A stretch of DNA of 59,735 nucleotides from a virus (IMGVR_UViG_3300008012_000002:1-59735), one strand, 5' to 3'; positions 6,369 through 58,145 are shown, numbered from the stretch's first letter. The notes: generated by a model from the letters alone, not told the origin. A program made the numbers and translations.

Positions 6369-6442
6369 GCGCTCGTAGCTCAGCTGGATAGAGCATCTGC
6401 CTTCTAAGCAGACGGTCCCAGGTTCGAATCCTGGCGGGCGTA
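6369..6442 (+). tRNA. tRNA-Arg (anticodon TCT)
   Basis: Full cloverleaf: GCGCTCG/CGGGCGT, D arm GCTC/GAGC, TCTGC-CTTCTAA-GCAGA, T loop TTCGAAT. Confidence 0.95.
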
Positions 6443-6460
6443 CAATTCAATCTAATAACA

Positions 6461-31157: not shown

Positions 31158-34100
31158 ATGAACGAAAACGAACAGCTTCTAAAAGACTACGTTGCTACGT
31201 GGGATAAGTATCAAGACTGGGACACTGTTAACTCAAAGTTCCCAGAGTTTGAAAGTGTAGACCCTCAGATCCTCAAGGACTACGTTGCCACTTGGGAAAA
31301 GTATCAGAACTGGGATCAGGTAAACGAAAGATTCCCAGAGTTCTTCCCTGAAAAAAAAAAGGATGGAGCATCCGAATCGGACGCCTCTCCATCTCCTGGA
31401 TACGGAACTGAGCCTGGAACCCTAGGCTGGACCTTAACTAAGTTCTTCAGCAAGATGTCTCCCAACATGGGGATTAAGATGGGGGGCTACGAAATGGAAG
31501 CCGAGGAAAGAAGGCTGGCTGAAGCTGGGCTTCTTGAGGATTTCAACAGGTATGATTTTGGGGATTTTGATGCAAATGCAGTAGCGGTTAATGCTCAGCA
31601 AAAGTCTGACGCCAGAACAGAAAACATTTTCAGCGTACTCGGGGGTGATGAGGAGTTCAGGCTTGGTCTTGCTAAGATTGACGAGAAGAAAGCTGGGGAT
31701 AGGGTTGCTGTTACCACAAATCCTGTGGGGCTGAACATGAATATCAAAACTCATCAGGATAGAGAGATTACTCAGGATGAGATTGATAAGGAGAGAAAGG
31801 AGTACATTAGGTCTGCTTACGAAGAAAGGCTTACAGAGTTTCATCAAGGGGAGCTTAGGGAGTCCATTCTTGAAAACCTTACTCCAGAGCAAAGAGAGGA
31901 TAAGGAGTTTCTTTCTATGCTCTCTGACAAGCTGTACTACCACGCTGGTGTAAATGCAGACCTAGATGGAGATGGCAGATACAATGACCAGCCAATTCTT
32001 CAAGACGCTGTAAACACCTTCGACACGACTATCAATGGTTTAGCAGAGGGCTTGATGGTTCCCGTCATGATGGCCACTATGGAGGAGGAGGAGCTTAAGG
32101 AGGCGTTCACTAATATGAGCGAGATGGATGAGGTTAGAGGTAGACTCCAGACTCAATATGACAGCGGCATTTTTGAATCATACGGAAACCTGGATATCTA
32201 TAACGGAACCAGGCAGTTGCTAAACGGTCTTGTTGGGGCTGTGCCAAGCATCTCCTTAAGCATGACAGGCGGTGTCGGCGCTGTCGTTTTGGGTACAAGC
32301 GGAGGCTTTAAGGCTTACTCGGAGGTGGCTTATGACGATAAGTTCACTAACAACTACGGCAAGTATGGGTACGCCATCGCTAATGGTGTTGGTGACTTTG
32401 CCTTCGCTAAGATTGGAAGCTCCATTTTTAAGGGCGCTGAACAGGCCGCAATCAAGTCTTTTCAGGCTGGAGCTAAGGGGGCTAAGGATGCTGGCAAGTT
32501 CATGACCAAGGAGATGATCAAGGGTTACGGTTACAGAAAGGGTATTGCTTTTTCTTCCGAGTTCCTTGAGGAGGCTGCAACTGAGCTTGCTACAAGCTAC
32601 TTCTCTGCTATTGGTCAGGGGAAAAAGTTTGATCTTTCAAAGGCGATTGGAGGTGTTATTGACGCTGGTCTTATTGGTGGTTTTGCTGGTGTTAGTATCG
32701 ACACGGCTGGTAACGCCTCAGGCAGAGTCAAGGCAGCAGCCAATGCCAGAGCAAACCTCGCTGCAGAAACACAGCGACAACTCGAAGCACAAAAGGCACA
32801 GCTTGAAAGGGAGCTTGCTGGATACGCTACTGGAGATCCGAGGACTCAAGAGATTCAGGCTGAGATTAACAGGATCAACTCTGACATCGAAAGTATTGTG
32901 AGGGGTAGAGAGGATTTCTACACCATGATGAGCGTGCGCCATGAGGCAGACTTCAAAGAGATGCAGGCGCTTGATGCGGAGATCGAAAGAATAGCGTCTA
33001 GACTTAAAGAGGATGGTGTCTCATCAGAAGAGAAATCCGTGCTTGAGGAAAGACAAAAGTCGGCGATCAAGAGAAGACTTGAGATTCAACAGGTTCACAT
33101 TGAAGAAAGTGTTGAGCTAAATCAAGAGGAGTCTGAATCTCTGTTTGGCAGATCCGTTAGCGACGCTATGAGCGCTATTGATGAAGAGCTTGATGCTGCT
33201 AGAAACTCTGCTAATTACCTGAGAGATAGAATGGGAACACAAGACCCACCTTCTCAGGCGGCAGTAGACAAGGCCAATGAAACCGTCAATGAACTGATTC
33301 AGAGAAAGCGCGACATTCAAAAGCTTATCGGTGAGGTTGAGCAAGCAAGAGGTGAGGTAAGATCCGCTAGGGCCGAAGCTCAGACAGAGGGTGGTGACGT
33401 TGAAGCCTTCAACGAAGCCATTGACAAACTTACTGTCCTGGAGGAGGCACTTGCTGAAGCGTCTGGCATCAACGAAAGAACCGTATCGGGACCATCAAGG
33501 TTTGTTGGCGACATCTTGGACATCAATGCGCAGATTGCGAATAGGTCTACACCGCAGTGGACTGAGGCCAACATCGAGGCAATGGAGAGCTCAGGCCTGA
33601 CGAGAGAACAGATCGAAGGCATACTTCAGTCTGAGAACTACGCGATGCTTACCGCTGAAAACCCTAACAACAGGGCTGTCAGTGACGAGTCTAACGATGC
33701 GAACAACAAGAAGGCAGAGGAGTACATCAAGAAACTTGGGCTGAAGTACCATAAGATTATTGGTAGATACGATGGAAAAGGAGAGAACAGCTTCCTTGTT
33801 GAAGGCATGACTAGAGAGCAGGCTGCGGAGTTTGCTAGGCAGTTTAATCAGGAGTCTATCGCCCATAGAGACGGTCTTGTCTTGAGAGACGGGAGCATGC
33901 AGATGTTTGGAGAAGGTGTTAGTTTTGACGACTCCTTTGACAATTTCTTCAGCGCCGTTAAGGACAACGAAGGTAACGTTCTGCGTTTTGCAAAACCTCT
34001 TTCAGACAAGTTCGTAGATAAAGACGGAAATGAAATTACCGCTCAGGAATTTGAGAACCGAGTAAAGGATCTTGAATCCAACATGCAGGCCATCGAAGAC

Positions 34101-37100
34101 TATATCGTAGAACAGGCGAACAAGCAAGAGTCTGAGGCTGAATCCCAAAAGGCTACCATCGATCAAAACACTGGGCTTCCAGAGGGCGCTATTAGCGTCA
34201 ACCCAAAGGCTGGTGTCAAGGTTGGTGAGGGCGGAGTTCTCAATAAGAACGAGGCGAAAACAATTAACAACCTCTTTAAGCTTTTTCAATCCCTGTACGG
34301 CGGTGATGCCAGAATGGTAATTATGCCTGAGGGGTCTCAAGCGTTTATGGGAGAGGGGAACGGGGGACTGTTCATCGACATGAAGGATGGTGTCCCCACC
34401 ATCTTTGTATCCCCTTCTCAGGTTAGAATCAACGCAGCTAATGAAGCATCACAGGCTAAAGAGAAGGGAGTTGCATTCAGGACAAAGTCGTTTGCCGAGA
34501 CAGTCGTCGAGGAAGTGAGTCACGCTGCTGTCGGGCCAGCTTTTCAGAAGCTAACAGAGAACGAACAGATAAAGCTAGAGCAGAGAGCATTTGAGATCGC
34601 CAGAAAAGCAAAGGATAAAGGCGCTCTGTTCAATAGATTGACAGCAAAGAAAGCCACGTACACTGCTCAAGGAAAGCCCGTTTCCATAGTTAGAGAGGAG
34701 GTTGTTCTCGACCTGATCTCGGCTTTGTCTGGAGGATCAAGCGAAGTAAATCTGGGAATGATTGATGGCGTAAGACGCCTCGTTAACGAGATCCTCGTAA
34801 AGGCTGGTATGGCCAAGGAGATGCAGATCAAAGATCCGAACTCGATCTTCCGTGTTGCAGCACAGCTTAACGCGGCAAGAAAGTCTGGCGCTTCGTTTGA
34901 TGCTAACGTTAACACCAGGAAGGACACAGAAGCCAAAGCTTCTGGGGCTTTGAATCCGTTCACGCTCAAGCAAGGACCTGACGGTAAGGTAACAGTTAAA
35001 CTCCTTGAAGCTGTTTATACATACAAGAAAGGATTTAAGAAGGATGTAGGCAGCAGAGAAGTAACTAGAAAGTTTAACGACAAGTACCACTTCGTAAATT
35101 GGTGGAAGAAGGCAACCAACTTTGGAGCGGATACACATTACTCACGATTCCAAACCGAAGATGGAAAGGATATTAACATGGGGGCTGTTAAGAAAAACTT
35201 CGGAAGAGGTCAGCAACCAACAGGAGACATCGTCAAGGACGGACTAGAGGTCTACAAGGAAAGAGTCCTTGAAGCAGAAAGGCAGGGGCTTATCGACAGC
35301 AACGCTAAGCGTATGATGTTGAACAACTACTACTCTGTCAAAAGAAACTACAGCGCAGAACTCAAGAAGACTGGATACAAAAACTCTGACGGGTTCAGCT
35401 ACGAGAGTTACGTAAGGAGCATGAACGAGAAGGCGGAAGAGATGCTCAAGAGAGCAAGCGACCGCACGGGAAAGGGTTTTGAGTTTGATCAAGACACGCC
35501 TTCTGGAAAAGCTTCTCAGATGTTGAAGCTTGACTTGATGGAGAAAGGTATGTACCTGAGCCTCATTGAAAAGGGCGATGCCCTATCAACTAGATATGGT
35601 ATCAACTTTGACCCATCCAACAAGGCGCTCACTAGAATGCTTCACTCCTCTGTAGCTAAGGAAGTGTACGGTATTGACTACGACAACCAGTCAGAGGCTG
35701 AGGTAATTGAAAGAACCACAAGCGCACTGCTTGGATTGGTTCGATCTTACTACGGAACCGTGGGGCAAAGAGTAGAGATGTTTGGCGCAGATCCAATAGA
35801 GTTCTTTGCTAAGGATAAGGAGCAAGCTGAGATTGACGTAGACAACATGCTTAAGGAGTTTGTAGGCGGTGAAGTCGATTCGTCTAGAGAAGGGTTTTTA
35901 GTCGCCTATCAGTTTGTAAAGGCGCTTGCTTCGGTGGGCAACAAGGCAAAACCCAACATTAACCTTGCTAAGCAGATCATGCTTGAGTCAGCGAGATGGA
36001 GAAGCAGCGGAGGTAACGCTTACATTGATCCAAGGATCATTCAAGACATCAGAGAGGGTTCTGATTCTGCAGGACTGGACATCTCTGGAGTTCCAGGTAA
36101 GACGAGAAAAACTATTGCCGATAACCTCGATAAGTTCAACGAACAGATGGAGTCGTTTCAATCAACGGAAGGACAGTATAACATCGTTCAGTTCTTGGAC
36201 GCAATGAATCAAGTTGATTCTACTGCAAAGTCTGGAGCCAAGAGGTTTGTAGCTCAGTCTGTGTTCTCTGAAAAGGTAGGGGCTTTCGCCCTGAACCTGA
36301 ACGGGAACGAGGAGGCTATGACCATCGACAGCCACATGGGTAGAACGATTCTGCAACTACTAGGTAACTACAATACGTTCGAGGGGGTCATGGATAGGCA
36401 CAGAGATAGGCTCGCCTCTATGACCGATATGCCAAGCATAGCGGATAGCGCTACTGGACAGTTGGACGCATTTAAGGAAGAGGAGTACGACAGAAAGCTG
36501 ATCGATAGAGCGAGCAATCTTGCAGCTAAGTCTGAGAAGTCTGTCCGAGGCAAGCTTGAGCGAATGCTTGAGAGTATTGCTGGAGAGGACAAGCCTATTC
36601 CTACGAACTACAAGAAGCGCAGAGTAATGGAGACTGTGATTGCTAACGTAGCAAGCGAAATGGGTATGCCTATCTCACAGTTCACGCAACTCCTTTTTGC
36701 AGATGGTCAGGTGATGAGGGGTAGAGCGGCAGGGCCAGGGCTTTACGAGGATTTTGCCACAGCCGCAGAGCAAGCAAGACTCATGGAGGATATGACAGAA
36801 ACCGAAAGAAGACAAGCGATGCTTGACAACCTTACGGTTAGTGCAATCAACGAAGCTACCGCTGAGGCTAGACGAAAAGAAAACTTGAAGAAGCAACTGG
36901 AGGCTGAGGGATCTGCAATGCCTACTGCGGCGGATGAAGTAAAGGCTTCGTCTCAACTGTCCCTTGATCTAGTGCCCAAGCAGAATGCCGACGAGTCACC
37001 CCTCTATAGAAGAAGAACAGCCTCAGAAGCCCTTCAGGTTTCTCCTGATGTAAAGATCAGCGACAGAAAGGTGATGGACGCCCTTGGCACTGACGCTACT

Positions 37101-40100
37101 TCAAGAAGAATTTTAGGTAAGAACTCTCAACTTACTGAAGGACAACAAGTTGGAGTCAGGCTTAACCTGAATGTGATGAAGAACACTGGTGTTCCAGTTC
37201 AGACTCTGCACAGCAAGAATGCTACTGGTGAGGCTTTGAGATACGCAGGTGTGGTCACTGTTAAGAACCCAACCCTTGCTGTGAATCAGAATGCCAGAAG
37301 AAAGATCTTCTCATTCCAAGAGAACAAGTTTCCAATGGCTAGCGTCAATGGTGAGTTCCTTACAGACAAGATCTCTGAGTCTAACTTCGACGGGGTGAAG
37401 GCCTTCTTCAATCCGTTCAAGCACAATGTATTCGTTGATGCTCAAGGACGTCCGATCAAGAGTGCAGGTGAAGCCACCATCGTGGGTAACACGGTGTACT
37501 TGAGAGGTGACATTGAATACTACGACTACAACGATCCAATTTTGAAAGAGGGTAGGACTGAAAGTCCAGAGCAGAAAGCGAAGAGAATCGAAAGAGGGCC
37601 TAAGTACGACAAGGCTGTCAATAGGTTTAGAGCTTATGCCGAACGAGTGATGGGTCTTCAATTCGCTAATGATGAAGATGTCCGCGAGGCATACGACAAC
37701 ATGACCTTTACTTCTCAGGTGGCGCTCAACGAAAGCGAGGTTGCTTCTAGAGCTGAGGAGGCTGTTGAACGAGCCTCGACTAGGTTGATTATCAGGAAGA
37801 CCGCTGGCAAGGCTGCTAGAAAGTATGGGTCAGTTCGTAATCAAATCCTTCAGGACCCGAAGAACTATTTCTCAAGACAGAGCATCGCAAAGGTTAAAGA
37901 CAACCTTGAAGTGATGACGGATCAAGAGCTTGTTGACATCATGACTGACGACGCTCTTGGTAGGCTTCAGAATAGGAACGATGATATGGGTGTGCTCGCT
38001 TCTGCAGAGATGATCAAGAGGGCTGTGGCTCGCGGAGACATGGATGCTATCCCTGGGATTGTAGCCGAGGCTGCAGCAATGGGGACTACAGCGGGTAGAT
38101 TGTTGAGACACTTCCGTGAGCTTAAGAACTCTACCCCAGTGGGTATCACTCAAATCATCAGAAAGGAAGTTGAGGCAAGAGGAAGAACCTTAAACTCAAA
38201 GCAAGAGTCTCAGCTTGAAACAATCGCTGGGAACCTGTTTAGACTTCAAGCAGAAGTAGAACAGCTTATGAAAGATGGCGCTCAAGGCATCGACGTGGAC
38301 GCTGAACTCAAGGCTAAGACTAAGGAGATGAAGGAGGCTGAGAGAGCTCTCGATACGTTCGCCAACACAGTCATTGAAAGAAGCTGGAGTGAGATTGGAC
38401 AAATGCTCATTCAAGGAAACTTGTTGACGCCGATGTCTCAGATCACAAACGTTGGCGCAAACATCATTAACGCTATTGGTCAGATCGGTGTGGACTTGGT
38501 TGGATACCCAGTCGAAAGACTGATCAACATCTTTGATAGGAACTCAGAGCCAGCTCGCAGACCATCGATCTCCGCTTACATGTACGGAGTGAGAAAGTTT
38601 GGTAGTGGTTTCATTGAAGCCCTCAACGAGGTCGTCACTGGTCAACAGCAGGACGTTACAGAGTGGAGAGTTAACAGAGGGTTCATGCCGTTCAGATCTT
38701 TGAAGGCGGCTGTAGCGAACGACAACCTCCCCCTTATGATGGACGGAGAGCCAAGAGTTATTGACAGTCAGTTTGTGAAGTTGCTCGTTCAGGGGACTGT
38801 TGGTATTCCAGCTGAGATCATGTTTAGATTCCTATCGCTCGGTGATACACCATTCAGAAGAATGTTTGAGGGTATTGATCTCTACGAGCAAGCTACTGAG
38901 ATGGGGCTGGAGGGAGAAGCCAGAGAAAACTTTATCAAGTATCCAGGCAAGAGGGCCAAGGAGGTTGCCGAGAGACGAGGTAGAAAGCTGACGTTCCAAG
39001 AGGAGACTGCCGCATCCAGAATGGCTGACGAGGGAATCAAAGTCATTGAAAAAATCTTTGATGGCATTCCATTCATGGATGGTAAGTTCCTTGTACGGAC
39101 GTTTATCCCATACAGAAGAACCCCAGCTAACATGCTCTATGAGACGCTGACTTTTGCTGCACCTCCAGTAGCTATTGCGAGAGCTTACAATGCTTTGGCA
39201 GAAGGAGATAGCAGAGAGGCGTCGCAGAATATCGGCAAGGCTGTTATTGGTGGTATGGCATCTACAACAGCGATCATGCTTCTCAAAGAAGGTTTGCTTA
39301 GTGGACCGATTGACTTCGGAGATGACGAAGAGAGAAACCTTATGTATGATCAGTTCCCTCCGAACAGCGTCAACGTAAGCGGGCTTCGGAGACTTCTCGC
39401 TGGAGAAGACCCAGCCAAGCAGCCTGATGATTACTTCATCTCGTACAACAAGCTTGGAATTATTGGGGCCATCTTTGGTGCCGTTGCTAAGGGCACATCG
39501 AAGCAAGAGATTCTTGAGCGAGGAGACACGCCTTTGATTACTCATACAATTCAAGACGCATTCGGACTTAAGGCATTCTCTACTATGTCTCACATGATGG
39601 ATCAAAGCTTCCTCCAAGGCATTCAAGGTCTTACTGGAATCCTTTCTGCGGCTACTGAGGGTGAGGTTGAGAGGGCAGTAGAGAACTGGTTCAAGAGCAT
39701 GTGGCAAGCAACCACAGCCATGGCTCTCCCGAACACTCTCTCAGCTTTGTACAGGTCTCACAGAGAGTACCTGCCAGACACAAGAGTGACCAAGGACATG
39801 GACGTCATGAAAAGAATGTACACAGCGGGTAAGTACATCGTTCTTAACAGGACATTTGGATTGGGTAATGTGCCAGTCAGAGTAAACTGGAAAGGAGAGC
39901 CCATTCAACAGACTCCAAGAGGTGCCGACGAATACATGTACCAGTTGTTCGACATCACCAAGGCGAGACAAGCTGAAGCAGATCCAGTATCCAACGAGAT
40001 CTACAGGCTGTTCGAGCGAACAGAAGAGATCACTACTGCGGTGGGAACTCCGAGGTTTGCTAGTACGTCTCAGGTCAGCATCCCTGACGTGATTAAGCCT

Positions 40101-40430
40101 AGAGATAAGTACATGGCAAGACGCGCAGGTGTGGACTTCGATTGGATGGATGATAAAGAGTTCATGAAAGAGAGCGTCCGACTCAACACAGAGCAGATCA
40201 ATCGCATGATGGCTGTGGCGGGTAAGAACCGATACGCAGATCTGGAAAAGCTCATCAACACGAGAATCTACAATGCGGCTACTGACGAGGAGAAGATTGA
40301 CATGATGGATGAGATCAACAGAGATTACTCAAGAGCGTGGTCTTACGAAGGAACCAACCTTGCACCGCACACGGTAGAGCTCTGCAAAATCCTAAACGAA
40401 ATCTATGAAGCAAGAAAGAAAGAAGATTAA
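31158..40430 (+). CDS. Giant polyvalent internal virion/DNA-ejection protein (3090 aa)
   Basis: Coiled coils, DUF3293-like LTAENP module, degenerate zincin EEVSH, HhH-GPD-like TIDSHMGR. Confidence 0.75.
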   Translation: MNENEQLLKDYVATWDKYQDWDTVNSKFPEFESVDPQILKDYVATWEKYQNWDQVNERFPEFFPEKKKDGASESDASPSPGYGTEPGTLGWTLTKFFSKMSPNMGIKMGGYEMEAEERRLAEAGLLEDFNRYDFGDFDANAVAVNAQQKSDARTENIFSVLGGDEEFRLGLAKIDEKKAGDRVAVTTNPVGLNMNIKTHQDREITQDEIDKERKEYIRSAYEERLTEFHQGELRESILENLTPEQREDKEFLSMLSDKLYYHAGVNADLDGDGRYNDQPILQDAVNTFDTTINGLAEGLMVPVMMATMEEEELKEAFTNMSEMDEVRGRLQTQYDSGIFESYGNLDIYNGTRQLLNGLVGAVPSISLSMTGGVGAVVLGTSGGFKAYSEVAYDDKFTNNYGKYGYAIANGVGDFAFAKIGSSIFKGAEQAAIKSFQAGAKGAKDAGKFMTKEMIKGYGYRKGIAFSSEFLEEAATELATSYFSAIGQGKKFDLSKAIGGVIDAGLIGGFAGVSIDTAGNASGRVKAAANARANLAAETQRQLEAQKAQLERELAGYATGDPRTQEIQAEINRINSDIESIVRGREDFYTMMSVRHEADFKEMQALDAEIERIASRLKEDGVSSEEKSVLEERQKSAIKRRLEIQQVHIEESVELNQEESESLFGRSVSDAMSAIDEELDAARNSANYLRDRMGTQDPPSQAAVDKANETVNELIQRKRDIQKLIGEVEQARGEVRSARAEAQTEGGDVEAFNEAIDKLTVLEEALAEASGINERTVSGPSRFVGDILDINAQIANRSTPQWTEANIEAMESSGLTREQIEGILQSENYAMLTAENPNNRAVSDESNDANNKKAEEYIKKLGLKYHKIIGRYDGKGENSFLVEGMTREQAAEFARQFNQESIAHRDGLVLRDGSMQMFGEGVSFDDSFDNFFSAVKDNEGNVLRFAKPLSDKFVDKDGNEITAQEFENRVKDLESNMQAIEDYIVEQANKQESEAESQKATIDQNTGLPEGAISVNPKAGVKVGEGGVLNKNEAKTINNLFKLFQSLYGGDARMVIMPEGSQAFMGEGNGGLFIDMKDGVPTIFVSPSQVRINAANEASQAKEKGVAFRTKSFAETVVEEVSHAAVGPAFQKLTENEQIKLEQRAFEIARKAKDKGALFNRLTAKKATYTAQGKPVSIVREEVVLDLISALSGGSSEVNLGMIDGVRRLVNEILVKAGMAKEMQIKDPNSIFRVAAQLNAARKSGASFDANVNTRKDTEAKASGALNPFTLKQGPDGKVTVKLLEAVYTYKKGFKKDVGSREVTRKFNDKYHFVNWWKKATNFGADTHYSRFQTEDGKDINMGAVKKNFGRGQQPTGDIVKDGLEVYKERVLEAERQGLIDSNAKRMMLNNYYSVKRNYSAELKKTGYKNSDGFSYESYVRSMNEKAEEMLKRASDRTGKGFEFDQDTPSGKASQMLKLDLMEKGMYLSLIEKGDALSTRYGINFDPSNKALTRMLHSSVAKEVYGIDYDNQSEAEVIERTTSALLGLVRSYYGTVGQRVEMFGADPIEFFAKDKEQAEIDVDNMLKEFVGGEVDSSREGFLVAYQFVKALASVGNKAKPNINLAKQIMLESARWRSSGGNAYIDPRIIQDIREGSDSAGLDISGVPGKTRKTIADNLDKFNEQMESFQSTEGQYNIVQFLDAMNQVDSTAKSGAKRFVAQSVFSEKVGAFALNLNGNEEAMTIDSHMGRTILQLLGNYNTFEGVMDRHRDRLASMTDMPSIADSATGQLDAFKEEEYDRKLIDRASNLAAKSEKSVRGKLERMLESIAGEDKPIPTNYKKRRVMETVIANVASEMGMPISQFTQLLFADGQVMRGRAAGPGLYEDFATAAEQARLMEDMTETERRQAMLDNLTVSAINEATAEARRKENLKKQLEAEGSAMPTAADEVKASSQLSLDLVPKQNADESPLYRRRTASEALQVSPDVKISDRKVMDALGTDATSRRILGKNSQLTEGQQVGVRLNLNVMKNTGVPVQTLHSKNATGEALRYAGVVTVKNPTLAVNQNARRKIFSFQENKFPMASVNGEFLTDKISESNFDGVKAFFNPFKHNVFVDAQGRPIKSAGEATIVGNTVYLRGDIEYYDYNDPILKEGRTESPEQKAKRIERGPKYDKAVNRFRAYAERVMGLQFANDEDVREAYDNMTFTSQVALNESEVASRAEEAVERASTRLIIRKTAGKAARKYGSVRNQILQDPKNYFSRQSIAKVKDNLEVMTDQELVDIMTDDALGRLQNRNDDMGVLASAEMIKRAVARGDMDAIPGIVAEAAAMGTTAGRLLRHFRELKNSTPVGITQIIRKEVEARGRTLNSKQESQLETIAGNLFRLQAEVEQLMKDGAQGIDVDAELKAKTKEMKEAERALDTFANTVIERSWSEIGQMLIQGNLLTPMSQITNVGANIINAIGQIGVDLVGYPVERLINIFDRNSEPARRPSISAYMYGVRKFGSGFIEALNEVVTGQQQDVTEWRVNRGFMPFRSLKAAVANDNLPLMMDGEPRVIDSQFVKLLVQGTVGIPAEIMFRFLSLGDTPFRRMFEGIDLYEQATEMGLEGEARENFIKYPGKRAKEVAERRGRKLTFQEETAASRMADEGIKVIEKIFDGIPFMDGKFLVRTFIPYRRTPANMLYETLTFAAPPVAIARAYNALAEGDSREASQNIGKAVIGGMASTTAIMLLKEGLLSGPIDFGDDEERNLMYDQFPPNSVNVSGLRRLLAGEDPAKQPDDYFISYNKLGIIGAIFGAVAKGTSKQEILERGDTPLITHTIQDAFGLKAFSTMSHMMDQSFLQGIQGLTGILSAATEGEVERAVENWFKSMWQATTAMALPNTLSALYRSHREYLPDTRVTKDMDVMKRMYTAGKYIVLNRTFGLGNVPVRVNWKGEPIQQTPRGADEYMYQLFDITKARQAEADPVSNEIYRLFERTEEITTAVGTPRFASTSQVSIPDVIKPRDKYMARRAGVDFDWMDDKEFMKESVRLNTEQINRMMAVAGKNRYADLEKLINTRIYNAATDEEKIDMMDEINRDYSRAWSYEGTNLAPHTVELCKILNEIYEARKKED

Positions 40431-52040: not shown

Positions 52041-52276
52041 GATTGGTAAATAAATTTGAAGTTTTCTCTGATTGCTCTGCCGTAACGGGTATGGAATCCG
52101 TAGCTGTGTGTGCCGAGCATTGGCTCGTTGGCAAGCATGAAGCGAAGGACTTTCCACTCTTCAAGGTCAAAGATGGATGCGGTTTCTTGTGTTGCTTCGA
52201 GTAGCATATCGGGATCGTGACGCATGGGTTGGCCGAGGTCTACCTCGATGTAGTCTTGTATGTCTTTACTCGTCAT
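52037..52276 (-). CDS. Hypothetical early protein
   Basis: Coupled ORF. Confidence 0.6.
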   Translation of the reverse strand: MTSKDIQDYIEVDLGQPMRHDPDMLLEATQETASIFDLEEWKVLRFMLANEPMLGTHSYGFHTRYGRAIRENFKFIYQS

Positions 52277-53094: not shown

Positions 53095-53257
53095 TGTCTT
53101 CAAAGTATTGGTTGTACAATTCATTAAGCTCTTCGTCTGTTGTAGAGTGTTCAAGGTCGTAGAGCATGGATTCAAAGACGTATTGATACATCGTATTCCA
53201 ATCCATGTCTTGCACTACGCTGTCAACGTAGCGTGTGAGTTTCTCATACCTCGTCAT
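53072..53257 (-). CDS. Hypothetical early protein
   Basis: MTRYEKL... acidic helical ORF. Confidence 0.55.
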   Translation of the reverse strand: MTRYEKLTRYVDSVVQDMDWNTMYQYVFESMLYDLEHSTTDEELNELYNQYFEDNDEETTA

Positions 53258-53846
53258 AGCTGTCAGAGTTTTTGGGTTTAGGAATGCGGAAAGCGTGCAT
53301 CGAGAAGTCGTCGACGTCGATGAAAGCGTGGTTGCGGTAGTACACATCCGAAATGAACTCACCGAGTTGTGCAAGGTTGTGCAAGCCCTCGTCTTTCCAG
53401 TTCTCGTTGGTACCGCCTACCACATCGGATGAGACACGAGCCACAAGTGACATACACAAGGGGTGGTAATCCCATGCTTGGTCGGCTTCGATTTGATTCC
53501 ACGTCAACCAACATGACTCGGTGGAGTCGGAGCGGTTAGACAGGTCAACCTCGATGATGCGGAATACCTCGACACTTACGTCGTCCATGAACTCCGCAAC
53601 GTAGTCGTCGTGCTCCATGTCAGAGGGGACGCAAGCGTGGTAGTTCTCGTAGTCACGAGTGAGGGTGACGTAGATGTCAAGCTCTCGGTGTTCGATGTTG
53701 ACGCACATCTCATCCTTGCGGTATTCGTCAAGAATCTGACTGACGTGCTTGTCTGCAAGCCCCCTGTCGGGGAAGAACTCGCAGGTGGTGTCGGAGTACC
53801 CTTCGAAGAGTCCTGCGACAGCGTGGATTACTGCATATTGTTTCAT
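53244..53846 (-). CDS. Hypothetical early protein
   Basis: 200-aa acidic ORF with an A/C-rich leader. Confidence 0.7.
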   Translation of the reverse strand: MKQYAVIHAVAGLFEGYSDTTCEFFPDRGLADKHVSQILDEYRKDEMCVNIEHRELDIYVTLTRDYENYHACVPSDMEHDDYVAEFMDDVSVEVFRIIEVDLSNRSDSTESCWLTWNQIEADQAWDYHPLCMSLVARVSSDVVGGTNENWKDEGLHNLAQLGEFISDVYYRNHAFIDVDDFSMHAFRIPKPKNSDSYDEV

Positions 53847-53875
53847 GTTGATTGAATTGAAGTTTAAGATTTGAA

Positions 53876-53933
53876 GTGTTCGTGTATATCACCTTCTTCG
53901 TAAACTCAGAAGGTGTATATACACTCACACATA
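53876..53933 (-). repeat. Conserved hairpin element, copy 1 (core CCTTCT-GAGTTTACGA-AGAAGG)
   Basis: Three near-identical intergenic copies with a long inverted repeat. Confidence 0.85.
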
Positions 53934-53935
53934 AG

Positions 53936-54064
53936 TAGCGGAAGGTGGAGTCGAACCACCGCACATCTCATGTTCGTTGCCATAAGCCCTCGGTAAAGGG
54001 TAGAAGGAACAGATATTGATATGCACACACCACCTCACGACCTCTCGTGATAAGTGTCTCCGCT
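53936..54064 (-). ncRNA. tRNA-like RNA 1 (129 nt; expanded D- and anticodon-arm regions)
   Basis: Acceptor AGCGGAG/TTCCGCT+A, T arm GGTGG-TTCGACT-CCACC, long internal stems. Confidence 0.7.
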
Positions 54065-54143
54065 TGGCGTGTTATCCTACGTCAGCAACCCAGTAGAGAC
54101 CCGATTTTGCTTAACTAGTATACGGGATGATAACTGCCATGTA

Positions 54144-54208
54144 GAAGGGAGGTTGGGATTCGAACACAACTGCCATCCGTAGATGTACGCACCGAACTGC
54201 GCTCCCTT
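54144..54208 (-). ncRNA. tRNA-like RNA 2 (65 nt; anticodon loop replaced by a UACG tetraloop)
   Basis: AAGGGAG/CTCCCTT, CGCA/TGCG, CATC-TACG-GATG, T loop TTCGAAT. Confidence 0.75.
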
Positions 54209-54250
54209 GAAAAAGGTGGGGGTGGCGTGACGTTTCACGTCTCACCCCCG
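54209..54250 (-). terminator. Terminator-like hairpin upstream of tRNA-like RNA 2
   Basis: GGGGGTG...CACCCCC followed by TTTTT on the - strand. Confidence 0.55.
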
Positions 54251-54260
54251 TGGTCAAACT

Positions 54261-54710
54261 TCAATCAACCAATTCCTTTTCGAGAAGACCATCCTCCATG
54301 ATGCCCTCCATGATATGATCGATTATGCGGTCAATAATGCCCGCTTGGTCACTCCATCTGCCGTACCCTTGAGCATCAAGCATGAATGATTTGAGTTCCT
54401 TGTACAAGTCATTACTCGGTAGGTTGTCTTCGAGGTACTCTGCCAAATCTTGGTAGTACGAATCCATCTTGTACTCCGTGTAGCACTCGTCGCCATCATA
54501 CTCCTCCCACTCACGCCACAGGTTACAGAACCCGTTGTTGTAGTAGTCGTAGCCGATTCGAGAGATGGCACGGAGGAGTTCAGGCCATCCGTCCTCCGCT
54601 TCACCCTCCATGGGTATAAGCTGTTTCCATGCTCGGTCGTACAGACCTTGATACTTGCCTTCGTTATCCCAGTAAATGCCGCTTGGCTTGTCGATAATTA
54701 CTTTCGTCAT
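54261..54710 (-). CDS. Hypothetical early protein
   Basis: YW...GKYQ..Y...LIP..G...ELLRA..R..YDYYNNG, a recurrent phage family. Confidence 0.75.
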   Translation of the reverse strand: MTKVIIDKPSGIYWDNEGKYQGLYDRAWKQLIPMEGEAEDGWPELLRAISRIGYDYYNNGFCNLWREWEEYDGDECYTEYKMDSYYQDLAEYLEDNLPSNDLYKELKSFMLDAQGYGRWSDQAGIIDRIIDHIMEGIMEDGLLEKELVD

Positions 54711-54727
54711 TGTCTTGTTTTTTTGGT

Positions 54728-54928
54728 TTACCAAAATCCATCGGTGTTCATGATTCTCTGAAGTTCTGCTGTCGTCACTCGTTTGAACGATTTTTCGTTG
54801 ATGGTGAGTCTTTTTGAGTCAGCCCACTTCTCTCTCGCTTGCTTACGAGCGGAGCGAATGTTGGCGGCCCACTCGAAGTTCCATCCACCTTGATTCCAGT
54901 TGAACACGTAGCAGTGCTTCTTACTCAT
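54728..54928 (-). CDS. Hypothetical early protein
   Basis: 66-aa ORF. Confidence 0.6.
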   Translation of the reverse strand: MSKKHCYVFNWNQGGWNFEWAANIRSARKQAREKWADSKRLTINEKSFKRVTTAELQRIMNTDGFW

Positions 54929-55115
54929 GGTTGTCTCGTCTTGTTGGTGTAATTTCCATGGTTACATCCCATGTTGCTTGGCAGTCCTCGCACTCGTAGT
55001 CGTGGCACTGCTGTACCCAACCTCCTGCGCTCCATCCAGTCTCCTGTGAGCCGAGGTGTATGCCGACTCCACCACACTTGTGGCAGGTGTCGTAGTCTCC
55101 TAATGGATTTCTCAT
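54921..55115 (-). CDS. Small Zn-finger protein
   Basis: CHKC...CEDC. Confidence 0.65.
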   Translation of the reverse strand: MRNPLGDYDTCHKCGGVGIHLGSQETGWSAGGWVQQCHDYECEDCQATWDVTMEITPTRRDNHE

Positions 55116-55122
55116 GTGTGTG

Positions 55123-55323
55123 TCATTTTCTTTTTGTTGTTTCGATTCCCCACCATTCTACTTCTTCATCGTGGATGCGGAAGCTGTGTGTTTCTTGCAG
55201 GGCGTCATTCCATACCTCGTCCAACCACACGCCGTGGTCGTCAGGTGCTCCCTGCACATAGGAAGCAGGGAAGCCTTGTTCTTGCAGTGCTTTGACTGCA
55301 CGTTCGCATTTGTCTTGTGTCAT
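55123..55323 (-). CDS. Hypothetical early protein
   Basis: 66-aa ORF. Confidence 0.6.
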   Translation of the reverse strand: MTQDKCERAVKALQEQGFPASYVQGAPDDHGVWLDEVWNDALQETHSFRIHDEEVEWWGIETTKRK

Positions 55324-55499
55324 TTGCTCAAGTTGAATGCAGTTTTACGAACAGCCTCGACCTTCTTCAAGGTCCACCCAGGAGGTGTCATCATCCGTGC
55401 TTGGATGAGTGCTGATGTGCTGTCATTGGATGCGAACTCGCGGTCTCGCCAATCGTCTCGGTCTTTGCCGAAGTAGTATACCATGCGGTAAATGTTCAT
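55320..55499 (-). CDS. Small early protein (59 aa; not in the track), paralogue of 56076..56309
   Basis: MNIYRMVYYFGKDRDDW; preceded by the shared leader. Confidence 0.65.
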   Translation of the reverse strand: MNIYRMVYYFGKDRDDWRDREFASNDSTSALIQARMMTPPGWTLKKVEAVRKTAFNLSK

Positions 55500-55537
55500 G
55501 TGAATGAAGTTTGAAATTTGAAAGATTTTGCAAGTTT

Positions 55538-55608
55538 TAGATGTGGCGGGATTCGAACCCGCACCTCCACCTTTCAGTGGCGTGCTATCCTGTTACACTA
55601 TCACACCT
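55538..55608 (-). ncRNA. tRNA-like RNA 3 (71 nt; anticodon arm shortened to CCACT-GAAA-GGTGG)
   Basis: AGGTGTG/CACATCT+A, D arm GTGT/GCAC, T arm GCGGG-TTCGAAT-CCCGC. Confidence 0.75.
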
Positions 55609-55642
55609 TGCGGGCTATGCCCCTCAAAGCTACGTTCGCTTT

Positions 55643-55692
55643 GACACAGACGCCTCTCGGCGTTTCGTCCATTGAGGACTCATCAGTGTGTC
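55643..55692 (-). ncRNA. Type I hammerhead ribozyme 1
   Basis: GACACA-CTGATGA-GTCC-TCAAT-GGAC-GAAA-CGCC-GAGA-GGCG-TC^TGTGTC; complete catalytic core with a GUC cleavage triplet. Confidence 0.92.
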
Positions 55693-55698
55693 TCTTTA

Positions 55699-55757
55699 GT
55701 GTTCGTGTATACTACCTTCTTCGTAAACTCAGAAGGTATGTATACACTCACACATAG
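55699..55757 (-). repeat. Conserved hairpin element, copy 2
   Basis: Same core as copy 1; immediately 5' of hammerhead 1. Confidence 0.85.
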
Positions 55758-55979
55758 TCAGTCGTCAGTCGACCACCGCTTCAGCATTCGCATCACATGG
55801 AACACCGTCGTAGCGTCAGCGTCAGGTGTGTTTGCCACGATTGATGCCATGCCCTTGACGTCATCAGGGATGAGCCGAGCGTAGCGGTTCAGGTCAGACA
55901 GGTACTTCCCGTTGTGGAAGTCGTTGAGGTAGAGGACGGCACGTCCTACGGGTTGGGAGAAAAAGTTGTCCTTAATCAT
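55758..55979 (-). CDS. Hypothetical early protein
   Basis: 73-aa ORF. Confidence 0.6.
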   Translation of the reverse strand: MIKDNFFSQPVGRAVLYLNDFHNGKYLSDLNRYARLIPDDVKGMASIVANTPDADATTVFHVMRMLKRWSTDD

Positions 55980-56076
55980 TGTTCAAGGCTTTGATGATGA
56001 TGCAGAGAATTGAAGCACCGACTAGCATCATGGCGAGCATGAGCGGGGTGCATGAGATGATGAACTCGGGTGTCAT
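55972..56076 (-). CDS. 34-aa single-TM peptide (not in the track)
   Basis: MTPEFIISCTPLMLAMMLVGASILCIIIKALNND; coupled to both neighbours. Confidence 0.5.
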   Translation of the reverse strand: MTPEFIISCTPLMLAMMLVGASILCIIIKALNND

Positions 56077-56309
56077 TACTTGTTGAGTTGGAAGTGGGCT
56101 TTCACGGACTTGACACAATGCCCATCAGGGCAGAGGTCAAGCGCTCGTTGCTTCGCATGGTCGAGAGACCACGCCTTGAACACGATGGCGTCCCAATCGT
56201 CGCGGTCGTAGCCACGATAGTACACCATCCTGAACTCCATTGAGGGGCAGGATTTCGGGAGCCAATCGCTCATCGTGCCCCGCTTGGGGTAGCGTTCCCA
56301 AATGTTCAT
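56076..56309 (-). CDS. Small early protein, paralogue of 55320..55499
   Basis: MNI...FRMVYYRGYDRDDW. Confidence 0.65.
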   Translation of the reverse strand: MNIWERYPKRGTMSDWLPKSCPSMEFRMVYYRGYDRDDWDAIVFKAWSLDHAKQRALDLCPDGHCVKSVKAHFQLNK

Positions 56310-56467
56310 GACAAGTCGACGATTTCTTGTGCGACCATCATCTGCTCGTTACATGACAGGCTTGCGAACTCCTCGGAGTTGAAGTAGGCGTCAGCCCCGA
56401 ACACTTGGTACATATCGACCATAGCTTGCAATTTGGCGATTCTCGCCTCAACATTTGTAGTTTTCAT
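56306..56467 (-). CDS. Small early protein (53 aa; not in the track)
   Basis: MKTTNVEARIAKLQAM...; first ORF after the hammerhead 2 cleavage site. Confidence 0.6.
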   Translation of the reverse strand: MKTTNVEARIAKLQAMVDMYQVFGADAYFNSEEFASLSCNEQMMVAQEIVDLS

Positions 56468-56487
56468 TGGAAATGAATTTGAAGTTT

Positions 56488-56539
56488 GATACAGACACCC
56501 CGAAGGGTGTTTCGTCCATTGAGGACTCGTCAGTGTACC
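56488..56539 (-). ncRNA. Type I hammerhead ribozyme 2
   Basis: GGTACA-CTGACGA-GTCC-TCAAT-GGAC-GAAA-CACCC-TTCG-GGGTG-TC^TGTATC; stems I and III covary with hammerhead 1. Confidence 0.92.
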
Positions 56540-56546
56540 TGTGATG

Positions 56547-56750
56547 TCAGTATGGGGGCTTGTCAGGTTTGGGTGAGAGAGCAGACTCCATGGCCTTGGA
56601 CAGGAGGTACTCCTCGAGTTCTTCGTCGAGGTGGTGCTTGAGGATGTAATCCTCGGCTTCGGGGTCGCTACCTAACACCCTGTAGACGTCTACACTTGTC
56701 ATGTAGCCTGATTGGATGACGCAATCGATGATGTCTGAAACGTTTGACAT
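56547..56750 (-). CDS. Hypothetical early protein
   Basis: 67-aa ORF with the shared leader. Confidence 0.65.
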   Translation of the reverse strand: MSNVSDIIDCVIQSGYMTSVDVYRVLGSDPEAEDYILKHHLDEELEEYLLSKAMESALSPKPDKPPY

Positions 56751-56781
56751 GGCTTGAAGTTTGAATTTCGAGTTAGAGAGA

Positions 56782-56831
56782 GGGGTCGTATATCACCTTC
56801 TTCGTAAACTCAGAAGGTGTATATACTCCCC
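56782..56831 (-). repeat. Conserved hairpin element, copy 3
   Basis: Same core; basal stem swapped to GGGG/CCCC (covariation). Confidence 0.85.
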
Positions 56832-56841
56832 CACTCATGGA

Positions 56842-57437: not shown

Positions 57438-57469
57438 CAAATCTACGGCGGCACTTTCCTTCTCACAAA
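57438..57469 (-). promoter_or_regulatory. Early promoter, Bacteroidota housekeeping sigma type (-33 TTTG, 20 nt, -7 TAGATTTG)
   Basis: Full match to TTTG-N19-21-TAnnTTTG, pointing into the early arm. Confidence 0.8.
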
Positions 57470-57974
57470 TTTTTGAGGGACTAAATCCATGCGCGATTTT
57501 ACTTCGTAAAACACGCGTGAAGATTTCGTGTATGCGCGTAAGGCATGGGGCCGTCTAGCGTATGCGACGTGTCCTGCGTGGTGTGCAATGCGACGTCGTT
57601 GGTGCGGGTGCAGGTTCGAGTGTTAGGTGAGGTAGGGGATTGTCATGCAGTGGAAAGCAACGGGTTGCAGTCGTCTTGCTGTAGCTATGCTCCAAGAAAG
57701 GCTGGATAAATTGCTGAAACATAGCAGGTTAGCCCTCGCGTGTGACGCATCATGCGTTGTGTGTCGCGTTCGTGACCCACGGGGGTAACGCATCCGATTC
57801 CGTACGTGCGTGCGTAGGTAGTGGGGTACGTATAATCCCACAGATCTGTATAACTCCCCCCATTTTCTTAGCGGGTTCCCCCTCGATCGGGGACCCCACG
57901 GCTCTATATATAAGCGTATAAGCTGTTATATGACAGTACATTAGCCTACATTACCTACACAAATGCTTAGGGGG

Positions 57975-58005
57975 TTGACATTTAAGCTTTTCTGCTGTAA
58001 CTTCG
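57975..58005 (+). promoter_or_regulatory. Promoter TTGACA-N17-TAACTTCG driving a candidate ncRNA
   Basis: Consensus-like elements with canonical spacing. Confidence 0.55.
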
Positions 58006-58145
58006 CCTCAGCGACTAAGCGAAATGGACGTCTTGAGCAAGTGTTTCGAAGCTTCTTAAGTAAATAAGTCGTTTGTCTACGAAAACGAAGGCTGTTAGCT
58101 TTAGTTGCTGAATGGGCGCAAGGACTATCTTGTTATATTTGCCCT

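Follow-up and report, generated by a model that had tools for sequence, protein, structure and literature searches.

How one long early transcript might be turned into separate messages is the question raised by a dense array of RNA structures at positions 53876-56831 of the viral genome IMGVR_UViG_3300008012_000002:1-59735, which was analysed over its full length of 59,735 nt and is referred to here as the window. A first-pass annotation had described two hammerhead ribozymes (HH1 and HH2), three tRNA-shaped RNAs, three copies of a long hairpin and further stems in the array, and had proposed that the phage uses them to cut its polycistronic early RNA. All eight principal elements were found on the - strand, in the places and in the order described. 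Our analysis points, with a probability somewhat better than even, to an early polycistronic RNA from a host-type promoter that would be divided by these junction modules, each of them handing the next gene block a common leader.

Along the - strand, hairpin 3 is followed by an open reading frame (ORF; 56547-56750), HH2, four ORFs, hairpin 2, HH1, tRNA-like 3, five ORFs, a terminator-like hairpin (54218-54249) with its run of five U (54210-54214), tRNA-like 2, an intervening stem, tRNA-like 1, hairpin 1 and a last ORF (53244-53846). Among the further stems that had been annotated, the terminator-like hairpin was borne out by its folding energy, and the stem between tRNA-likes 2 and 1 was found to fold no better than shuffled sequences (Table 1).

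Table 1. Elements of the array and associated sites in the window, in their order along the - strand (columns: element, position, strand, values and remarks).
Element	Position	Strand	Values and remarks
Host-type (Bacteroidota) promoter-like site, TTTG-N20-TAGATTTG, before the leader of the first early gene	57438..57469	-	one of only two full matches on the - strand
Long hairpin 3 of class A, with some 20 pairs, a bulged A, tandem G.A and UUUA closed by an apical G-C	56778..56836	-	-32.4 kcal/mol, z -7.48
Type I hammerhead HH2, predicted cut 56494 / 56493	56488..56539	-	relatives-only model 75.9 bits, E 3.5e-22
Long hairpin 2, class A; two compensated pairs relative to hairpin 1	55699..55753	-	fold z -6.90
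Type I hammerhead HH1, predicted cut 55649 / 55648	55643..55692	-	relatives-only model 69.3 bits, E 5.1e-20; fold z -3.08
Spacer with two small hairpins, HH1 to tRNA-like 3	55608..55642	-	z -1.04, not significant alone; cassette kept in L078, L155
tRNA-like 3; cloverleaf, 6-bp acceptor stem, canonical D and T arms, 4-5-bp stem with GAAA at the anticodon position	55539..55607	-	
Anti-leader, exact complement of the leader, overlapping the stop codon of ORF 54261-54710	54251..54267	-	directly before the terminator-like hairpin
Terminator-like hairpin, then ACC and five U	54210..54249	-	z -4.42; not flagged by a simple terminator scan
tRNA-like 2; invariant 7-bp acceptor stem, D-like arm, T arm, 4-bp UACG-capped arm at the anticodon position	54144..54208	-	
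Inserted stem between tRNA-likes 2 and 1	54065..54143	-	z -1.28; absent in relatives, where the mimics lie 7 nt apart
tRNA-like 1; 129-nt four-way junction, 7-bp acceptor stem, canonical T arm	53936..54064	-	z -3.47
Long hairpin 1, class A	53876..53930	-	fold z -8.25
A/C/U-rich leader, one of five on the - strand, before ORF 53244-53846	53847..53875	-	

Both hammerheads have intact cores (CUGAUGA or CUGACGA, GAAA, GUC), a stem II of 4 bp, a stem III of 5-6 bp and an open stem I of 6 bp, and the minimum-energy fold of each is a three-way junction. A covariance model built from 28 relatives, with the window left out, returned just these two from the window, the next match reaching 11.6 bits. In 30 members of the family, the core columns are invariant. 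A 25-letter pattern of core and stem II matched at least 119 viral contigs, and a descriptor requiring stems I and III as well gave 184 matches in 114 of 157 sources and none on sequences read backwards. Covariation was assessed on 30 distinct members of the closest family, out of 148 distinct descriptor matches, which were retrieved by a core-plus-flank pattern and aligned with MAFFT; this pattern fixed part of stem I, where only the pairs 3-54 and 6-51 count as free evidence. All 450 of 450 cells in the alignment were paired, with both-sided changes in 8 of 15 pairs. In 500 shuffles, neither this pairing nor the tally of pairs or of cells with both-sided change nor the covariation score was ever attained; 117 of the shuffles did match the count of further pair types. 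Position was equally consistent: an ATG-started ORF of at least 30 aa begins within 60 nt of the cut for 154 of the 178 hammerheads with room for one (median 24 nt, quartiles 21-27), compared with 1328 of 3560 random positions on the same strand (37%). Self-cleavage is predicted for these hammerheads, and as a capacity we consider it close to certain. Type I hammerheads whose stem I has 6 bp occur widely among viral contigs (loci L001-L159, by which related loci are named here), and those of one contig often have the stem I sequence in common.

The three long hairpins span 55-59 nt and have fold z-scores between -6.9 and -8.3. Their 22-nt core occurs three times in the window, always on the - strand and against no occurrence of a control pattern, and was also found in 14 related viral loci with up to three copies each. 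Covariation was scored on class A only, i.e. on 13 of 51 distinct stretches, with classes B and C and two indel-bearing class A copies set aside; a joint alignment of classes A and B was too ragged in the outer stems, hence the restriction. Both-sided changes were seen in 9 of the 23 class A pairs, among them the apical pair, which went from G-C to A-U twice, and one U.G intermediate was present. Relatives hold at least two further sequence classes of the same architecture. The predicted stems have about 20-23 pairs, interrupted by a bulge and G.A pairs, and by analogy their length and imperfections are like those of RNase III sites, for which roughly two turns of mostly double-stranded RNA are expected.

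None of the three tRNA-shaped RNAs (tRNA mimics) has a 7-nt anticodon loop, as annotated. When compared with Rfam tRNA (RF00005), tRNA-like 3 scored 38.8 bits, above the gathering score of 29, and ARAGORN called it tRNA-???; tRNA-likes 1 and 2 gave no match to this family even at E <=10. In the Rfam comparison suggested with the first-pass annotation, one mimic was accepted, two were unmatched and the hammerheads matched below the gathering score. Among relatives, HH1, the 35-nt spacer and tRNA-like 3 occur together again in L078 and L155; in both, a UAU triloop closes the arm, and L078 has one compensated acceptor pair. Taken alone, tRNA-like 2 folds no better than shuffles (z -0.86), and its case rests on conservation in relatives: the frame is invariant in 24 distinct versions, and the T arm is rebuilt in L124, L129 and L131 with two compensated pairs. 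Its central arm is absent, a 4-bp tetraloop hairpin or up to about 80 nt long among these versions, and is always predicted to be helical. tRNA-like 1, with a GAGG-loop hairpin at the D position and a long conserved central arm, has seven distinct homologues (L077, a different RNA, was excluded), of whose 43 consensus pairs 10 are compensated; its inner segment is invariant. The first-pass annotation had made its proposal depend on conservation and covariation in relatives, and hammerheads, hairpins and mimics all recur there with compensatory changes.

A 10-nt T-loop pattern matched the genome four times against 0.99 expected, namely in the three mimics and in a genuine tRNA-Arg (TCT) at 6369-6443 (+), which is kept in four related loci. 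Since this tRNA-Arg encodes no CCA, 3' processing without CCA appears to be the local norm, and the mimics, which encode none either, match the local precursor type. The features of an RNase P and RNase Z substrate (acceptor on T arm, canonical T loop and a D-loop partner) are present in the modelled mimics, and we consider tRNA-type processing of them likely. Further types of mimic were seen in the same slot in L018, L120, L123, L128 and L132 and in L009 (around 11240-11290); one has a GGCAGAG/CUCUGCC acceptor stem with large internal inserts, and that in L009 is another.

What connects these unlike elements is the sequence that follows them. The central 9-mer of the leader occurs six times against 1.0 expected. 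Four of the - strand copies precede start codons, after the promoter, hairpin 3, HH2 and hairpin 1, the fifth lies at 52056-52064, and tRNA-like 3 is followed by a copy with one mismatch. The sixth occurrence is on the + strand, and is thus the leader complement on the - strand (54256-54264). Of 36 cases of tRNA-like 2 in relatives, 26 have such an anti-leader no more than 140 nt upstream. The form TTGATGTTTG is confined to L155 and L157, which are also the two loci with leaders CAAACATCAA; here the leader has A for T at one position, the complement is changed to match, and no locus mixes the two forms. Followed by a stable hairpin, a U-run and a mimic that RNase P might cut, the anti-leader resembles a small RNA derived from a 3' untranslated region and directed against every early leader.

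Different elements were observed to take the same place before the same gene. In a census of 171 leader-plus-ATG sites from 54 sources, a hairpin comes before 62, a hammerhead before 28, a tRNA mimic before 7 and something else before 74, this last group including the promoter-headed first gene, the promoter-like sites of L144 and L156, hairpin classes missed by the patterns and false leaders. Orthologues of the 200-aa gene (ORF 53244-53846) stand behind a hairpin in L120, L126 and L137, behind a tRNA mimic in L045, L124, L141, L142 and L147, and behind promoter-like sequence in L144 and L156. The 53-aa gene (ORF 56306-56467) has a hammerhead in front in the window, L127 and L130 and a hairpin in L125; genes of a family with a DRDDW motif are preceded by a hammerhead or by tRNA-like 3, and one further gene by a hammerhead in L011 and a tRNA mimic in L009. 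As a hammerhead acts only as RNA and makes a new 5' end at the leader, it can be argued that the devices interchangeable with it supply a 5' end too, and the swapping of element types before orthologous genes fits a common role in making the 5' end of the mRNA. The elements, their positions, conservation and covariation, and this interchangeability are matters of observation. The DRDDW family consists of small early proteins with the motif YY..(R/K)DRDDW, has two paralogues in the window (55320-55499 and 56076-56309) and further members in L126, L044 and L155, and the device before each gene differs between phages.

The array lies in a block of small early-type genes that runs on the - strand from about 57.4 kb downwards, the structural genes being on the + strand. 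A strict pattern scan for TTTG-N20-TAGATTTG, which we take to be a promoter motif of the Bacteroidota type, gave one full match in the early region, at the head of this operon, and TAnnTTTG-like words occupy the same place in relatives (MNNQ/MSDV genes). No strict host-type -33/-7 match was found at any hairpin in the scan of the genome, and a sigma-70-type scan gave nothing at the hairpins either. With a sole match at the head and none at the hairpins, one long early transcript made by the host polymerase is the simplest reading. The proposal that polycistronic RNA is processed here is supported in part, by conserved RNA structures on the coding strand of the operon, one promoter at its head, a common leader and the swapping of devices.

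As we picture the processing, host RNA polymerase would transcribe the early genes from 57438-57469 into a long polycistronic RNA, and the junction modules would split it so that each next gene block receives the same unstructured leader. The two hammerheads would cut themselves, and the resulting mRNA, with a 5'-hydroxyl, would begin 6 nt upstream of the leader. It is the unit of acceptor and T arm, not the anticodon, that RNase P and RNase Z recognise; the mimics may accordingly be substrates for host RNase P at the 5' side and for a CCA-independent 3' endonuclease such as RNase Z, and their excision would free the downstream leader and yield stable small RNAs. The long hairpins would act on RNA, either as cut sites of the RNase III type or as end-protecting stems, and tRNA-like 2 would also set the 3' end of the upstream piece that bears the leader complement. 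The cleavages, the enzymes and any effect on stability or translation we infer from the structures and their placement. An extended form of this scheme, in which early control is exerted by RNA only, has four parts: one host promoter, plug-in 5'-end generators, an anti-leader RNA that switches off all early genes, and mimics as decoys. Here, the 3' end of the anti-leader RNA would come from the terminator-like hairpin or from RNase P at tRNA-like 2, the RNA would pair with the leader, and the mimics, once excised, would at the same time serve as stable decoys, with their hypervariable arms evolving in response to host factors. We regard the full scheme as rather unlikely.

Several observations weigh against the processing reading. 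Against Rfam Hammerhead_1 (RF00163), the two hammerheads reach 24.9 bits (E 0.007) and 22.8 bits (E 0.033), short of the 34 bits set for gathering; short stems and odd loop lengths are penalised by this model. No tertiary contact between stem I and loop II is evident in the minimal HH1 and HH2, and with a stem I of 6 bp, activity at cellular Mg2+ is unproven; a 5-nt U...U loop II in most matches and AA after stem I in 108 of the 173 tabulated matches bear on such a contact as a hint only. The 22-nt hairpin core is identical in 25 of 25 copies (window and 14 loci), which is more than RNase III requires. The terminator-like hairpin might stop transcription, and hairpin 1 might start it after all, since no host-type promoter was found for the genes that follow. 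RNA ligase, kinase-phosphatase and CCA enzyme were sought among the 69 ORFs of the phage, and none was found. The frames of the mimics, too, are more conserved than a cut signal needs. In metatranscriptome run X24, 16 contig pieces were found, none 99% identical and so from relatives only; some of them cross the cut site of a hammerhead, and one runs from an ORF through hairpin 1 into a different type of tRNA mimic. Being contigs, which cannot show RNA ends, from a library that may contain DNA, these were counted neither for nor against.

The hairpins could instead be cassettes that act on transcription, as promoters of an unrecognised phage polymerase in the manner of N4 or as units like the PeSLs of T4-type phages, with recombination between small early genes as their main role. 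Near-identical hairpin copies directly upstream of leader and ATG, AT-rich flanks and the lack of a host-type promoter found for the genes after the terminator-like hairpin agree with this, and PeSLs are described in just such a role (PMC2839356). Yet the hairpins have no U-run and no host-type or sigma-70-like site, and the same slot in relatives holds a hammerhead or a mimic, which act only as RNA. Hairpin classes are also mixed within one contig (L045, L120, L136, L159), which speaks against a single DNA-binding factor specific to the phage. Owing to the tandem G.A pairs, class A folds about 4-5 kcal/mol better as sense than as antisense strand; over all classes, the sense strand is the better one in only 27 of 43. 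A virion polymerase could be hidden in the 3090-aa ORF (31158-40430, +), but this carries no DFDxD motif, Pfam polymerase domain or PDB sequence match, and no DNA or RNA polymerase family was found in the whole genome at the thresholds used (Pfam, PHROGs). Only DUF3293 and an L5 gp82-like domain were seen in this ORF. Virion-polymerase hairpin promoters of the N4 or crAss type were dropped as the leading explanation on the grounds that the ORF lends no support and that a host-type promoter heads the operon. As regards recombination, gene content between the modules differs widely among relatives, and freshwater DNA contigs of run X1 join HH1 to HH2 (55651 to 56505/56506), skipping 853-854 nt, because of which we take the modules to be recombination joints. 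The joined contigs have a different stem III loop and represent relatives with one hammerhead in place of the two hammerheads and four genes of the window. Such a role is compatible with processing and not opposed to it; as the main explanation, the transcription cassette appears improbable.

A similarly low probability is assigned to the view that small RNAs are the main products, the mimics serving in trans as decoys or sponges for host enzymes or for defence nucleases that grip the elbow or acceptor, the anti-leader RNA pairing with the leader, and hammerheads and hairpins merely releasing these RNAs. This would account for the combination of invariant frame and hypervariable central arm in tRNA-like 2, for the invariant inner segment of tRNA-like 1, and for the placing and co-change of the anti-leader; the related flavobacterial crAss-like phage phi14:2 is described as making abundant early non-coding RNAs of unknown function (10.1101/2020.03.07.982082), and T4 RNAC and RNAD are listed with 'yet unknown functions' in the text of PMC9697503. 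On the other side, no Ro60/TROVE or other RNA-binding family was found among the 69 ORFs, and neither a target nor a partner protein came to light; the leader follows immediately after tRNA-like 3 and after some copies of tRNA-like 2, which fits a role in cis. A single DNA-binding protein able to read either orientation could likewise explain why leader and anti-leader change together, and the changes in L155 and L157 may go back to one event. Nevertheless, the mimic frames are far more conserved than a cut signal would need and tRNA-like 2 is coupled to the anti-leader, both of which go beyond the first-pass annotation, and because of them the array probably makes functional small RNAs as well. 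Far less probable than any of these is the excision by the hammerheads of the RNA of about 845 nt between their cuts, followed by circularisation by a host ligase. HH1 and HH2 do have the same orientation, 847 nt apart, and by established chemistry the products would bear 5'-OH and 2',3'-cyclic phosphate ends. However, the phage itself has no RNA ligase among its 69 ORFs, the stem I sequences differ so that the joined molecule rebuilds no clean hammerhead, and ordinary ORFs with leaders lie between the cuts. No back-joint was seen in the runs compared, contigs being poor evidence on this point, and the text of PMC3088659 reports that circular or spliced products of clustered phage hammerheads were sought and none found.

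Other identities were considered for the mimics and their neighbours. For tRNA-like 2, kin in cellular genomes was rejected: its 5' half matched 85 stretches from diverse bacteria, the 3' half was present in 0 of the 85, and the matches were attributed to chance. A Y RNA (YrlA) bound by Ro60 was rejected in view of the missing TROVE family among the 69 ORFs and of the lack of an Rfam match, and an attP remnant was rejected with no integrase found in the protein family scans and both halves of each mimic present. The apex of the terminator-like hairpin (UGAAACGUCA) is conserved across relatives and its lower stem covaries, which is unusual for a plain terminator. L129 keeps this hairpin without the U-run, and in L129 and L131 the U-run or the whole hairpin is missing.

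The genome is recorded as a complete virus genome with terminal repeats, its 123 initial bases being repeated at the terminus. Its products include a terminase, a portal, a ribonucleotide reductase, a primase-helicase that carries a BT4734-type domain and a further protein that has a domain of the type IX secretion signal. By the primase-helicase, the nearest cultured relatives are phages of Maribacter, Cellulophaga and Flavobacterium, at an identity of at most 35%. Judged from this gene content and these relatives, the source is an uncultured phage of Flavobacteria-type hosts. The runs richest in words of the genome are labelled as freshwater metagenomes. A blastn search in distant mode with the 3.3-kb array region gave no match among GenBank phages. 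Upstream of the promoter, 700 nt (57470-58145) are apparently non-coding and GC-rich, with several possible stems. A second word of start regions on the - strand (...CAAGACAATGAC...) has four copies between 52262 and 54727 at genes without the standard leader and hints at another class of context for translation starts.

tRNA-shaped signals for cutting between genes are familiar from mitochondrial tRNA punctuation and from RNase P cuts in bacterial operon mRNAs. The array likewise has tRNA-shaped elements between coding regions, the cleavage being proposed only; its mimics, in contrast, cannot decode and sit at only some junctions, and tRNA-likes 1 and 2 fail Rfam tRNA. The early transcript of T7 contains the classic RNase III processing sites. 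Long imperfect hairpins with internal loops between early genes on a host-polymerase transcript are common to both phages, whereas the hairpins of the window have a conserved apical motif, tandem G.A pairs and at least three sequence classes, and the enzyme is proposed only. T4 RNAC and RNAD have tRNA-like ends, and T5 also has stable RNAs of this sort. The T4 RNAs, described as having unknown functions (PMC9697503), resemble the mimics as small phage RNAs with a tRNA-type frame and no decoding role; the mimics differ by having no sequence relation to them, by lying inside an early mRNA operon and not in a tRNA cluster, and by the hypervariable arm of tRNA-like 2.

The closest precedent for the hammerheads is given by Perreault et al. 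2011 (PMC3088659), in whose text same-orientation hammerheads flank single genes or short blocks in phages and prophages, long phage transcripts are proposed to be cut into gene-length mRNAs, and one haloviral hammerhead, placed 13 nt ahead of a start codon, has a 5' end mapped close to its cut. Compared with these clusters, hammerheads around phage genes and the idea of processing are the likeness; here, the hammerheads are minimal type I, score below Rfam gathering, stand about 24 nt before the start codon on a standard leader, and occupy a slot common to hairpins, tRNA mimics and promoters. The role of most genome-encoded hammerheads was still called unknown in the text of a 2019 review (PMC6765202), and a 2026 paper on RNA viruses treats type I hammerheads in DNA phages as known. 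Theta ribozymes, which are HDV-like, also place a self-cleaving ribozyme next to tRNA-type RNA in phages, according to PMC10879173, in which no occurrence of the word 'hammerhead' was counted. In the window, by comparison, a hammerhead lies 5' of a non-decoding mimic with a 35-nt spacer (41 nt from the predicted cut). The PeSLs of T4-type phages, which carry a sigma-70-like promoter and a terminator according to the text of Arbiol et al. 2010 (PMC2839356), are the nearest repeated cassettes at junctions to have been published: like the hairpins, they are short repeated stem-loop cassettes that flank small non-essential early ORFs and mark modular exchange. The hairpins of the window do not qualify as cassettes of this type, because they have neither a host-type promoter motif nor a U-run. 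A description of hammerheads, tRNA mimics and hairpins in one slot with one leader was not found in literature searches, with the qualification that supplementary figures of PMC3088659 may show similar type I examples. The novelty claimed at first for the combination is thereby narrowed to the mixed modules, as clustered phage hammerheads with a processing idea (PMC3088659) and stable RNAs with a tRNA-like frame (T4 RNAC/RNAD, PMC9697503) had already been described in the texts cited.

We conclude that the hammerheads themselves are of a known kind and that the mixed, interchangeable junctions, together with a standard leader and an anti-leader, are a new form of phage transcript processing, well defined and widespread in one phage lineage, each functional step of which we infer. 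Ribozyme insulators and polycistronic arrays spaced by tRNAs are in use as engineered designs, which the phage system resembles. The search brought up no cultured relative, so that tests will have to rely on synthetic constructs or on a new isolate. Sister phages in which the same gene and leader stand behind a ribozyme, a mimic, a hairpin or a promoter amount to a natural experiment, and the constancy of gene and leader across these devices makes the notion of a ribozyme as generator of mRNA 5' ends directly testable. With its mimics, the array also contributes a well-defined family of tRNA scaffolds that lack an anticodon and have one hypervariable arm; its leader and anti-leader, as a pair, may form a global switch of early genes.

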